This document shows positions 9,512 through 12,336 of a DNA stretch of 33,848 nucleotides, piece after piece (position 1 is the first letter of the stretch; the number at the start of each line of letters is the position of its first letter). Origin of the DNA: a virus (taxonomy: Duplodnaviria > Heunggongvirae > Uroviricota > Caudoviricetes); the IMG/VR virus record IMGVR_UViG_2925877141_000002; one strand, written 5' to 3'. The notes below the pieces were generated by a model, which saw only the letters and a program-made list of their open reading frames with translations, was not told the origin of the DNA and did no database searches. The translations under genes were made by a program, and so were the position numbers.

Positions 9512-9934
9512 GTGGCAAAAGTTTTTACACAGGAAGAGCGGGAAAAAATTAAAGAGCAGGTGGTCGAACTTGTGCGCCAGAGCGGTCGCGAGACATTACG
9601 ACAGTTGGAAGCTAAAACAGGTGCGACAAGATATCTGATGAGCATTCTTGCCAGAGAGCTGGTTGCCAGTGGTTATGTATACAACTCCGGCTACGGGTTA
9701 TTCCCGTCTGAACAGGCACGAAAGGACTGGCAAAATGCCCGCAAAAAACTCTCTAGGGCGAAGGTGAAGAAACCCGCTGTGGTTGATCCGGACCTTATCT
9801 GGTCACTACCTGATGGAGAAATACGTCGCTACGACAGTCGTCTAAACATAATCTGTCGCGAGTGCCGGAAGAGTGAAGCTATGCAGCGTGTACTGGCTTT
9901 CTATCAGGGTAATTTTCAGGAGGCGGTACTGTGA
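9512..9934 (+). CDS. Hypothetical early-region protein
   Basis: 140-aa ORF, GTG start with AAGGAGG RBS 4 nt upstream; no recognisable helicase-loader motifs. Confidence 0.5.
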   Translation: MAKVFTQEEREKIKEQVVELVRQSGRETLRQLEAKTGATRYLMSILARELVASGYVYNSGYGLFPSEQARKDWQNARKKLSRAKVKKPAVVDPDLIWSLPDGEIRRYDSRLNIICRECRKSEAMQRVLAFYQGNFQEAVL

Positions 9935-10171
9935 GTGAAATTAGCTATCAGGCTTCAATTACCGCTGGCATTCGCATCAAAGGAGAGGAGCATGGAAATA
10001 AAACCAGAGGATTAGTTAAGCAATATCGTTTTATTTCCGATAAAAGAGGATGACCCTCGTAATCAGGTTAATTTTCTTTATGAGCCATCGGAAAGACCAT
10101 ATTGCCATCACGCTTCTGTCCGGGTTGACGAAAAAGAGCGTCAGGTCCGCTGTAAAATCTGAGGTGCAGTT

Positions 10172-10348
10172 GTGGAGCCATTTGACTGGATGCTCTCTGT
10201 GGCGAAAAGAGAAACCAGACTGGCAGATGATGTAAGGCTCTTGCGCCAGGAGGAACGGGAAAGACGAAAAAATATAGAAAAGCTAATTCAGATTGAGCGT
10301 AACGGGAAAGCGCGGATACGCAGGGTGACAAAATCCAGAACTGAATAA
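10172..10348 (+). CDS. Hypothetical small charged protein
   Basis: 58 codons from GTG with GAGGTG RBS; overlaps a 61-aa ORF in another frame, so uncertain. Confidence 0.3.
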   Translation: MEPFDWMLSVAKRETRLADDVRLLRQEERERRKNIEKLIQIERNGKARIRRVTKSRTE

Positions 10349-10418
10349 TTAAATTTAGCACTGTTAAAAATTTAATCCTTAACCGGAGGGATTTCTGCAC
10401 CCTCAGAACATCAGGAGG

Positions 10419-10434
10419 CCGCCCGAAAGGGCGG
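10419..10434 (+). promoter_or_regulatory. GC hairpin (CCGCCC-GAAA-GGGCGG) between SD AGGAGG (10413-10418) and ATG 10442
   Basis: Perfect 6-bp stem with GAAA loop; unfolded spacing is 23 nt, folded about 6 nt. Confidence 0.4.
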
Positions 10435-10441
10435 TAGTTAA

Positions 10442-10579
10442 ATGCGAAAGTTTAAAATAATTATTGAAACGGGAATAGCCGGTGGAGATTTCGAGGATGA
10501 ATTCGAAGTGGATAATGATGCGACGCCTGATGAAATACATGACGAAGCAAAAGATATTTTCTTTAACTACTGCAATTAA
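10442..10579 (+). CDS. Small acidic protein, 45 aa
   Basis: MRKFKIIIETGIAGGDFEDEFEVDNDATPDEIHDEAKDIFFNYCN; D/E-rich. Confidence 0.4.
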   Translation: MRKFKIIIETGIAGGDFEDEFEVDNDATPDEIHDEAKDIFFNYCN

Positions 10580-10616
10580 TCATATCACGAAATAAAAGAC
10601 GAAGAGGAAGAACAAA

Positions 10617-10793
10617 ATGGCTGATTTTGGTTCAACTAAATACAACGTCGGTTTTGAAGAATGGCATGAACTGTTAATGGACTATGCAGAGTTACGTGGT
10701 GGCAGTGCTGCTGATGCTGAAGCATGGCGTGATGATTATGAAGCAGGAAAAACTCCGGTCGAAGCATATTGTGATGAGTGGGGCGATGAATGA
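10617..10793 (+). CDS. Small acidic protein, 58 aa
   Basis: MADFGSTKYNVGFEEWHELLMDYAELRGGSAADAEAWRDDYEAGKTPVEAYCDEWGDE; GAGGAAG RBS 6 nt upstream; 17 D/E against 5 K/R/H. Confidence 0.45.
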   Translation: MADFGSTKYNVGFEEWHELLMDYAELRGGSAADAEAWRDDYEAGKTPVEAYCDEWGDE

Positions 10794-11275
10794 GCGAGGT
10801 TAATTATCAGGAAGGGCATGAAACGGCGGGGCAAGCAAAAACAGTGGCATGGCGATATCGCTACGTGAAAAAAAGGCGTTACGGACTTTCAGGGGAAGTA
10901 GTGATCTGGTGACTGGAAATATGTACCGAAAAAAGAGGATTGTAACGATAGGCCGAACTATGAAATTCAGGCCTTATTCACTGCCCCGCCAGTCCCGGTT
11001 ACATCAGAAGAACTGGTTAAAGCTGTGCACTTTTATGAACAACTAAAACGCGAAAATCCACCAGCATCCGGAAACCTGATTACAGGTTCCCAGATAAGGC
11101 AATGAGCTACCTGGCGCAGAACGGGCTGATAAGTATGGGGAATGTTTTACGATGAATATTTAGACTAAAGAGTTTGTAACGCTATGTAAGTGATTTTTTC
11201 TGGTTTAGATATTTATATGTCCGGCTAAATTGAGGTGTGTTTAAATGTTATTGCACATTGATTGTAGGGGGAATA

Positions 11276-11455
11276 ATGAAAAACGCATTGCAGTTTTTGT
11301 TTGTTGCGTTCTGGTTGTTCGCATCATGTATGCCCATCATCTTCACAGCAAGGTATATGGAAAAAGTTGATGTTTTGATATTAATATTTGGATATATAAA
11401 TGCCCTTTTTTTAGGGGTGTTCATGGCGGTCATGTGCATTGAATACTGGCGGTAA
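11276..11455 (+). CDS. Small hydrophobic membrane protein
   Basis: 59 aa MKNALQFLFVAFWLFASCMPIIF...; GGGGGA RBS; A+T-rich context. Confidence 0.4.
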   Translation: MKNALQFLFVAFWLFASCMPIIFTARYMEKVDVLILIFGYINALFLGVFMAVMCIEYWR

Positions 11456-11712
11456 ATACAGCGAACTCCATTGGTTTAGTTGGATATTTACTGTGCTGGA
11501 CAAAACGGTTTGCGGGGAAATCTTAGTTAAGTAGAATGACTGCGGGTGCTTGAGGCTATCTGCCTCGGGCACGAACACCAACGGCAGGTAGAGAAAAGCC
11601 CCAGTTAACATTACGCGTCCTGCAAGACGCTTAACATTAATCTGAGGCCAATTTCATGCTAGACACATGTAGGTTAGCCTCTTACGTGCCGAAAGGCAAG
11701 GAGAAGCAGGCT

Positions 11713-11868
11713 ATGAAGCAGCAAAAGGCGATGTTAATCGCCCTGATCGTCATCTGTTTAACCGTCATAGTGACGGCACTGGTAACGAGGAAAGACCTCT
11801 GCGAGGTACGAATCCGAACCGGCCAGACGGAGGTCGCTGTCTTCACAGCTTACGAACCTGAGGAGTAA
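11713..11868 (+). CDS. hokD: Hok-family type I toxin (HokD/RelF-like)
   Basis: 51 aa MKQQKAMLIALIVICLTVIVTALVTRKDLCEVRIRTGQTEVAVFTAYEPEE; AAGGAGAAG RBS; same frame is open upstream to 11656; terminator downstream. Confidence 0.85.
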   Translation: MKQQKAMLIALIVICLTVIVTALVTRKDLCEVRIRTGQTEVAVFTAYEPEE

Positions 11869-11938
11869 GAGACCCGGCGAGGGAGAAATCCCTCGCCACC
11901 TCTGATGTGGCAGGCATCCTCAACGCACCCGCACTTAA

Positions 11939-11957
11939 CCCGCTTCGGCGGGTTTTT
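11939..11957 (+). terminator. Rho-independent terminator after hok
   Basis: CCCGC-TTCG-GCGGG followed by TTTTTGTTTTT. Confidence 0.7.
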
Positions 11958-12084
11958 GTTTTTATTTTCAACGCGTTTGAAGTTCTGGACGGTGCCGGAA
12001 TAGAATCAAAAATACTTAAGTAGCGCGCAGGGATAAGAGGGATGGTCCCTTAAAGGGGAGAGCTAATTATCCGGAAGGATTCTG

Positions 12085-12336
12085 ATGATGAACATCGAAG
12101 AACTGCGTAAAATTTTTTGTGAAGATGGCCTCTATGCTGTGTGCGTTGAAAATGGAAATCTTGTTAGTCATTACCGCATTATGTGTTTGCGAAAGAATGG
12201 GGCTGCGTTAATTAATTTTGTGGATGGTCGAGTGACAGACGGATTTATCTTGCGCGAAGGTGAGTTTGTCACTTCATTACAGGCACTGAAAGAGATCGGA
12301 ATAAAAGCAGGCTTTTCAGCTTTTGCAGAAGAATAA
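12085..12336 (+). CDS. rem: Rem-like protein
   Basis: 83 aa MMNIEELRKIFCEDGLYAVCVENGNLVSHYRIMCLRKNGAAL...; GGAAGGA RBS; position after hok as in Qin. Confidence 0.6.
   Translation: MMNIEELRKIFCEDGLYAVCVENGNLVSHYRIMCLRKNGAALINFVDGRVTDGFILREGEFVTSLQALKEIGIKAGFSAFAEE

Follow-up and report, generated by a model that had tools for sequence, protein, structure and literature searches.

A conserved intergenic cassette upstream of a DUF7167 gene in a Qin-like prophage, and its probable role as a portable split ribosome-binding site

The DNA analysed in this study, a stretch of 33,848 nucleotides (nt) from IMG/VR record IMGVR_UViG_2925877141_000002 that is referred to below as the window, is a decaying Qin-like lambdoid prophage of Escherichia coli. 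It contains two small tandem open reading frames (ORFs), ORF1 and ORF2, and between the Shine-Dalgarno (SD) sequence and the start codon of ORF1 lies a GC-rich hairpin, here called hairpin 2. The 651 bases around the two ORFs match a chromosomal prophage of E. coli EcPNK006 with 100% identity. This prophage adjoins rspAB and carries, in order, int-xis, dicB, ydfA, repressor/cro, ydaT, an O-like replication gene, DUF977, ORF1 and ORF2, and then hokD, rem, ydfU and Q, so that the two ORFs belong to the early rightward operon, downstream of the replication genes and upstream of Q. The features of the locus are listed in Table 1. A preliminary description, made from the sequence alone, had reported an AGGAGG motif, a perfect CCGCCC-GAAA-GGGCGG hairpin and an ATG in succession ahead of ORF1, and reading of the sequence confirmed the position of all three.

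Table 1. Features of the locus (positions in the window) and genes found behind copies of the cassette
Feature	Coordinates	Strand	Hairpin-to-start distance	Remarks
Upstream pseudogene	10025-10348			phrog_1621-like C-terminus at 10172-10348; internal stop; ends at TAA 10346-48
Conserved intergenic cassette, ~99 nt	10343..10441	+		From the stop-codon cluster to the TA just past hairpin 2
Stop cluster TGAATAATTAA	10343..10353	+		Stops in all three frames; 5' edge of the cassette
Hairpin 1, GGAGGG / 9-nt loop / CCCTC	10385..10404	+		3' arm CCUC (10401-04) may pair with the SD instead
Shine-Dalgarno AGGAGG	10413..10418	+		23 nt ahead of ATG 10442
Hairpin 2, CCGCCC-GAAA-GGGCGG	10419..10434	+		6-bp stem, GNRA tetraloop, optional G10418.U10435 pair
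Linker TAGTTAA, 7 nt	10435..10441	+		No SD-like sequence; in-frame TAA directly 5' of ATG
ORF1, DUF7167 family	10442..10579	+		45 amino acids, nonsense-truncated allele; Pfam PF23768, phrog_1997
Premature TAA, codon 46	10577..10579	+		TAY (Tyr46) in relatives
Untranslated remnant of the ORF1 C-terminus, SYHEIKDEEEEQNG	10580..10624	+		TGA at 10622-24; holds the ORF2 SD, GAGG 10604-07
ORF2, acidic three-helix protein	10617..10793	+		58 amino acids; C-terminal domain of phrog_519
Decayed downstream gene, start	10790..10912	+		ATGA overlap with the ORF2 stop; frameshift and nonsense codons
DUF7167 behind the cassette			7 nt	
DUF4014 behind the cassette			6 nt	72-amino-acid membrane protein (phrog_1832)
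DUF551-type mosaic proteins behind the cassette			8-9 nt	Two different N-termini

The 23-nt gap between the SD and the ATG is made up of the 16 nt of hairpin 2 (CCGCCC at 10419-10424, GAAA at 10425-10428 and GGGCGG at 10429-10434) and the 7-nt linker. The hairpin alone has a folding energy of -12.4 kcal/mol, or -14.4 kcal/mol when the flanking G.U pair is included, and each of its six pairs formed with a probability of 0.99-1.0 in four folding windows. A chance origin of this arrangement is unlikely, because 0.12 copies of the hairpin 2 motif are expected per shuffled window when up to 2 mismatches are allowed (perfect GC-rich 6-bp hairpins 3.3 times), AGGAGG has only 10 sites in the window, one of which abuts hairpin 2, and the position of ATG 10442 is fixed by the conserved MRKF N-terminus of ORF1 homologues.

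Three other readings of this region were considered and rejected. An intrinsic terminator was discarded since a uridine tract is absent (the tail behind the hairpin, UAGUUAAA, has 3 U in 8) and a terminator scan gave nothing at 10419-34. A lambda-type nut site (boxA and boxB) does not agree with the presence of several copies per prophage directly before start codons, and reading of 10380-10418 revealed no CGCTCTTA-like boxA. Finally, a leader ORF coupled to ORF1 was dismissed, as there is no canonical in-frame start between the stops at 10373 and 10439.

Hairpin 2 is not private to ORF1, but is part of a portable cassette. The cassette consists of a stop-codon cluster, an AT-rich stretch, hairpin 1, AGGAGG, hairpin 2 and TA, and has a nearly invariant core of ~62 nt with the sequence AATCCTTAACC-GGAGGG-ATTTCTGCA-CCCTC-AGAACATC-AGGAGG-CCGCCCGAAAGGGCGG-TA. 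When 61 nt of this core (10378-10438) were used as query against 5426 complete E. coli genomes, 3131 matching places were found in 2354 of them, with up to 7 per genome, and these were never annotated. Phage records with the cassette number 14, among them Stx2a phages, Rac-SA53 and ArgO145. Two copies are found in the loci L005 and L207, and likewise in ArgO145, where they punctuate an array of Ead/Ea22, DUF7167, ORF2, Ead/Ea22, DUF4014 and HNH genes. The DUF4014 protein of this array (ArgO145 gp12, L336 2594-2812) is labelled 'released from the phage upon host infection' in PHROG.

The surroundings of the cassette are variable on both sides. At least 5 unrelated upstream gene ends are joined to it, either immediately ahead of the SD or at the stop cluster, of which two of the three frames were observed in use. 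Far upstream, 23 distinct sequence contexts were distinguished. On the other side, homology stops directly past GGGCGGTA. The cassette is thus a short conserved intergenic sequence that has unrelated genes on both sides in different phages, as described for conserved boundary sequences. A short form, consisting of the SD and hairpin 2 only, follows the 3' end of DUF551 genes, and the minimal unit common to the long and short contexts is TCNGGAGG, the hairpin and TA, together ~26 nt. Conservation of the cassette between flanks that both vary makes it plausible that it also serves as a homology patch for swapping accessory genes between prophages.

What remains constant is the distance to the next gene. 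The cassette precedes four unrelated N-termini, those of DUF7167, DUF4014 and two DUF551 types (Table 1), and an ORF opens with a start codon 6-9 nt past the stem of hairpin 2 in 91 of the 100 unique contexts. The linkers (TAGTTAA, TAAGAA, TAATAAAA and TAATAAATA) are gene-specific, and none contains an SD-like run. In the 91 unique copies with a downstream ORF, the SD is AGGAGG 82 times, GGGAGG 7 times, and TGGAGG and AGGGGG once each.

This constant geometry before unrelated genes that have no other SD is best explained by a split ribosome-binding site (RBS), in which the two parts of the initiation region are joined by folding. The distance of 23 nt is beyond the limit of ~15 nt for direct function, a stable hairpin is contained entirely in the interval from the SD to the start and leaves an effective spacing within 5-11 nt, and an alternative SD at normal distance is absent. 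In such a mechanism, hairpin 2 would form co-transcriptionally and would be looped out on the platform of the 30S subunit, so that AGGAGG would effectively be placed 6-9 nt ahead of the start codon of the next gene, irrespective of its identity, and the cassette as a whole, conserved between varying flanks, would act as a homology patch for the exchange of accessory genes. We consider it probable, though by no means certain, that the cassette is a portable split RBS that also marks mosaic joints, with two real, conserved accessory genes behind it in the window. From the constant geometry and the varying flanks we infer that the hairpin enhances or permits initiation, and that crossovers occur at the cassette.

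There is a precedent for this arrangement in bacteriophage T4, where a hairpin reduces the SD spacing of gene 38 from 22 to 5 nt and that of gene 25 from 27 to 11 nt (PMC3014915), and where destabilising mutations reduce initiation (PMC3014915; PMC7297116). These split initiation regions were described by Gold 1988, Nivinskas et al. 1999, and Malys & Nivinskas 2009, and are reviewed in PMC3014915. The ORF1 leader resembles them in that the linear distance between SD and AUG is too long (23 nt versus 22 and 27 nt), and in that a stable hairpin lies wholly in between, whose folding brings the effective spacing to 7 nt, compared with 5 and 11 nt in the T4 genes. As in the case of gene 25, the arrangement is limited to one sub-lineage, and distant relatives have an ordinary RBS. 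On the other hand, the unit described here is a repeated cassette that precedes at least 4 unrelated N-termini in thousands of prophages, and whereas the T4 examples have mutational support, ours is known from sequence, with covariation that is not significant.

The preliminary description had proposed that folding of the hairpin brings the SD to a normal distance from the AUG. This proposal gains from the recurrence of the same unit before four unrelated N-termini, from the T4 precedent, and from relatives that lack the hairpin and have an ordinary SD spacing, but not from covariation. To assess conservation, about 200 IMG/VR loci with relatives of ORF1 were compared, and the order of AGGAGG, hairpin, 7 nt and ATG was found to be kept, with variations. 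C>T changes in the left arm, which are compatible with G.U pairing, are common, some rare haplotypes have disruptive changes, and an A.C mismatch found in one lineage has been restored to a pair, A-U, in two loci. Two diverged lineages (77% and 82% protein identity) have kept the stem exactly, with GGAA or GAAA loops, TAATGA or TAACATA linkers, and TGGAGG or AGGGGG as SD, and in these stem-identical lineages 42-44% of third codon positions, as well as the linker, are different from those of the window. GGCA, TAAA and GAAAA loops also occur. In distant DUF7167 genes, which have no hairpin, the ATG is either preceded at 5-8 nt by GGAGG or GGGGG, or is part of a stop/start coupling; therefore, hairpin 2 looks like a 16-nt insertion into an ordinary RBS. 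A possible third mosaic context, the L103 type, in which AGGAGG is missing, was rejected as such: L103 2560-2600 (IMG/VR 2872180393_000005) and five similar loci contain an insertion in the SD and the left arm of hairpin 2, with an insertion sequence (IS) end, CTGAGGGATCCCC..., that resembles an IS10-type terminus, and this insertion has removed AGGAGG and left a 4-bp stem.

Several observations weigh against the split RBS. Among 23 hairpin haplotypes covariation was not significant, as 93% of cells pair and shuffles gave an equal value, and only one G-C to A-U double change was found. RNAalifold detected 0 compensatory pairs in 28 cassette copies. Nucleotide diversity in the close population is 0.082 for the stem, which is similar to the 0.094-0.129 of third codon positions, and several haplotypes have disruptive mismatches, with hairpin energies down to -5 kcal/mol. 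Moreover, it is the whole ~62-nt core that is conserved, loops and single-stranded parts included, which may come from recent spread or recombinational homogenisation and not from selection on the stem; likewise, the identity of the stem across ORF1 lineages may stem from cassette exchange and not from purifying selection. In the window itself, the element may have lost its relevance, given that ORF1 is cut short and that the genes flanking the locus on either side are pseudogenes.

Some of these observations could be explained if the SD-hairpin unit has no role in translation and is instead a DNA or RNA element, for example a recombination hot-spot or mini-palindrome that would spread and mark the joints between cassettes, or a signal for RNA processing or stability, the downstream genes being translated by means of their A-rich linkers or by re-initiation. 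Conservation of the core as a sequence and not of the stems alone, the lack of covariation, the small size of the shared minimal unit, and the end of homology exactly at the 3' foot of hairpin 2 would all be in line with this possibility, and in the short context an upstream stop codon 4 nt before the SD is compatible with re-initiation. However, it leaves unexplained why all four gene families lack another SD and why the start always lies 6-9 nt from the stem, and why AGGAGG or GGGAGG has been retained in 89 of the 91 copies. In addition, the absence of a uridine tract excludes an intrinsic terminator and there is no Rfam family, and strand-specific GNRA loops (GAAA and GGAA), as found in the two deepest lineages, would not be required in an element that is purely a DNA palindrome, although the other loops mentioned above are found as well. 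We therefore regard such an element as unlikely.

Folding of the region upstream of hairpin 2 raises another possibility. Hairpin 1 formed with a probability of 0.63-0.70 in short folding windows, and one compensatory variant, GAGTG/CACTC, was found among the cassette copies. Within 10385-10418 there is a GGAGGG / CCCUC / AGGAGG triplet, in which CCUC has two alternative partners, the SD-like decoy upstream of it and the real SD. In one longer folding window the SD was sequestered by CCUC 10401-04 with a probability of 0.85, and in three other windows this value was 0.01-0.18; the pairing is thus not robust to the choice of window, and the predicted accessibility of the SD depends on that choice, which is a further point against the split RBS. 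Hairpin 2 might accordingly be a negative or conditional element that keeps AGGAGG too far from the AUG, or is combined with sequestration of the SD by CCUC, in which case the downstream gene would be translated at a low level, or conditionally, in response to temperature, to an RNA-binding protein, or to unwinding by ribosomes upstream. As a general rule stable structures at initiation regions are inhibitory (PMC7297116), the SD-CCUC helix, where it is predicted, stacks on hairpin 2, and the triplet resembles an arrangement of decoy, anti-SD and SD. Yet, apart from the low pairing values in the three other windows, the short form of the cassette behind DUF551 genes has neither hairpin 1 nor CCUC, but has retained the SD, hairpin 2 and the spacing of 6-9 nt. 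Furthermore, the hairpin leaves the AUG and the SD, except for its last G, unpaired, and a strict linker of 6-9 nt is needed by an active split RBS and not by a simple block. An inhibitory role thus seems improbable to us, and the split RBS remains the preferred explanation.

Turning to the proteins, ORF1 is a member of the DUF7167 family. It matched the Pfam profile PF23768 above the gathering threshold (41 bits, cut-off 24.4, E = 2.1e-10) and phrog_1997 with E = 2e-23, and an identical protein is named 'DUF7167 family protein' in RefSeq. The match covers positions 1-52 of the 60 of the PF23768 profile, which is short of the full-length domain. In an alignment of 57 homologues the positions I8, E9, T10, F40, C44 and Y46 are near-invariant, and ORF1 lacks the conserved C-N-Y-[GS]-aromatic segment, Y46 and the tail being lost. 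The common E. coli form of the protein has 60 amino acids, ending ...FFNYCNYSYHEIKDEEEEQNG (P0010, a cluster of 596 members). Since the TAA of ORF1 stands at a Tyr codon and the in-frame continuation past it, SYHEIKDEEEEQNG*, is identical to the normal C-terminus, the 45-amino-acid ORF1 is a nonsense-truncated allele of this gene that has lost the last 15 residues, and for annotation purposes this form should be treated as a truncation and not as the native length. The exact 45-amino-acid protein occurs on at least 1000 contigs, and is therefore a widespread lineage allele; of 77 IMG/VR loci, 3 carry it. Other common inactivated alleles are a 36-amino-acid form, a 46-amino-acid frameshift, and an IS insertion.

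Homologues of DUF7167 are found in prophages of Klebsiella, Citrobacter and Yersinia, in phAPEC8-like myoviruses, Jerseyvirus siphoviruses, and Enterococcus Kochikohdavirus. An AlphaFold model of the 60-amino-acid ORF1, built with 57 sequences, has a beta-beta-alpha fold, i.e., a beta-hairpin and one helix, with a predicted local distance difference test score (pLDDT) of 86.9. In two unrelated groups of virulent phages (L086, Salmonella phage SE124_1FR, 1130-1200; L087, Enterococcus phage MDA2) the DUF7167 gene lies directly beside an exonuclease gene, and on other contigs it lies beside SNF2 helicase or HNH genes. Such neighbours may point to a link with DNA metabolism. A literature search returned no paper with DUF7167, the protein accessions, or the hairpin string.

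Several hundred database entries (including P0126-P0132) give DUF7167 as a protein of 84-93 amino acids, and one extended call of 73 amino acids, P0031, reads through hairpin 2 (...EAARKGGNE-MRKF), with GAA replacing the TAA before the ATG. Because of this read-through, and because distant homologues all start with M-[RK]-K, the calls of 84-93 amino acids are probably mis-called starts. Where GAA takes the place of this TAA, gene callers would start DUF7167 upstream of the hairpin and read across it.

ORF2 matched phrog_519 with E = 5.5e-22 over positions 76-137 of 143, so that its membership is at the level of a domain. An exhaustive profile search recovered 67 cluster representatives at E <= 1e-3 among 1.8 billion, and an AlphaFold model predicts a three-helix bundle (pLDDT 88.7). 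Homologues are common in phages of the Ackermannviridae. In Enterobacter prophages an ORF2 homologue follows an Ead/Ea22 gene without any DUF7167, and in Klebsiella, Citrobacter and Yersinia DUF7167 is found without ORF2; therefore, each is a module independent of the other. Three diverged E. coli-type lineages have nonetheless retained the pair, with genes that overlap or abut, and overlap or direct abutment is also seen in L103, L207 and L223. In intact alleles, the ORF1 stop, TGA 10622-24, overlaps the ORF2 start by 8 nt (ATGGCTGA), indicating that the genes are normally translationally coupled, and the nonsense codon at Tyr46 removes both the ORF1 C-terminus and this overlap. With regard to known families, ORF1 and ORF2 are sequence members of PF23768, PHROG 1997 and PHROG 519, but ORF1 lacks the last 15 residues and ORF2 represents only the C-terminal domain of the 143-position profile. 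The preliminary description had named a lack of conservation in related prophages as grounds for doubting the two ORFs. Both are conserved, and they are real accessory genes of known families that have no assigned function.

The two proteins are strongly acidic, as had been described before: both have an isoelectric point of 4.05, and the net charges are -9 for ORF1 and -12 for ORF2. On the basis of this acidity and the position in the early region they had been placed in a class that includes DNA mimics and anti-defence factors. The acidity and the position hold, but a similarity to characterised members of this class was not found. A search of PDB sequences gave no relative of either protein, a BFVD search returned uncharacterised homologues only, and neither protein showed resemblance to a known anti-restriction, anti-CRISPR or DNA-mimic structure, or similarity in sequence or fold to characterised members such as Ocr, ArdA and similar proteins, or anti-CRISPR proteins. 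The only lead beyond charge and position is that phrog_519 proteins were scored as candidate anti-CRISPR proteins by the machine-learning tool PaCRISPR in Kuttervirus genomes (PMC9409062). An early-expressed anti-defence role of ORF1, ORF2 or both, as DNA mimics, anti-restriction or anti-CRISPR proteins, would fit with the negative charges, with this prediction, with the occurrence of both families in temperate and virulent phages, and with the location of the genes in early-region accessory arrays beside Ead/Ea22, DUF551, HNH and exonuclease genes. Given the results of the searches we find it quite doubtful, and as an assignment it is unsupported. On present evidence the two acidic proteins should not be labelled anti-defence.

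The genes on either side of the locus have decayed. The downstream gene is labelled 'frameshifted' in RefSeq, in agreement with a comparison with L103 and with our reading of the sequence; over its extent as a pseudogene (10790-11046) it contains a run of seven A at 10869-75, where the frame switches, and TAG and TGA at the positions of two Trp residues in the relative L103. The internal stop in the upstream pseudogene, together with the nonsense codon in ORF1, indicates relaxed selection on this part of the prophage. A scan of the + strand from 9800 to 11700 gave 0 promoter-like and 0 terminator-like sites, and the AT-rich part of the cassette, when checked for a promoter by scanning and by reading the sequence, did not contain one. 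A search of 9800-12200 against Rfam (E <= 1) returned sok and sub-threshold noise only, and neither hairpin 2 nor the cassette matched a family. The sok match (107.8 bits, 11544-11718) belongs to a hok/sok type I toxin-antitoxin locus (hokD) at 11544-11868, of which the Hok ORF ends at 11868. Just past hokD, an isrK-like match at 11877-11958 remained below threshold (25.7 bits versus a gathering score of 50); it covers two GC-rich hairpins, at 11877-96 and 11938-53.

Taken as a whole, the cassette combines two types of element that are already known, namely split translation initiation regions and mosaic boundary sequences. That the borders of lambdoid mosaics are flanked by short conserved sequences is a published concept (PMC2327257, citing Clark et al. 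2001). The cassette is similar to these boundary sequences in being short, conserved and intergenic, and in being common to a subset of related phages, with unrelated modules on both sides, and its length fits with the ~30-bp minimum for Red or RecA recombination. It differs from them in having a stop cluster, two hairpins, an SD, and a fixed relation to the next start. The exact hairpin string was absent from the searchable literature, a body of text that does not cover the paper of Clark et al. 2001 itself. The PeSL cassettes of T4-type phages, which combine an early promoter with a terminator-like stem-loop (PMC2839356, PMC4122927), are likewise repeated intergenic stem-loop motifs that flank variable accessory ORFs, and modular shuffling has been proposed for them. 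However, no promoter or uridine tract was found in the cassette described here and its stem-loop lies inside the RBS, so that it does not belong to the PeSL type.

A more far-reaching view is that the locked GNRA hairpin insulates initiation from the downstream coding sequence, so that the cassette would be an insulated ribosome-binding module as well as an exchange site, giving an integron-like, recombination-driven array of plug-in early genes. We give this extension little weight, but if true, any accessory gene recombined behind the cassette would be expressed at once, and the plug-in genes, e.g., DUF7167, the ORF2 family and DUF4014, would possibly serve counter-defence.

Experimentally supported split RBSs are few, and comprise T4 genes 38 and 25 and a handful of cellular mRNAs. 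If the interpretation of the cassette as a split RBS is correct, a unit with thousands of copies ahead of several unrelated genes would turn this type of initiation region from a curiosity into a reusable design, and would provide natural parts for context-independent expression. It would also identify a concrete sequence at which lambdoid prophages, including Stx phages, swap their accessory genes.

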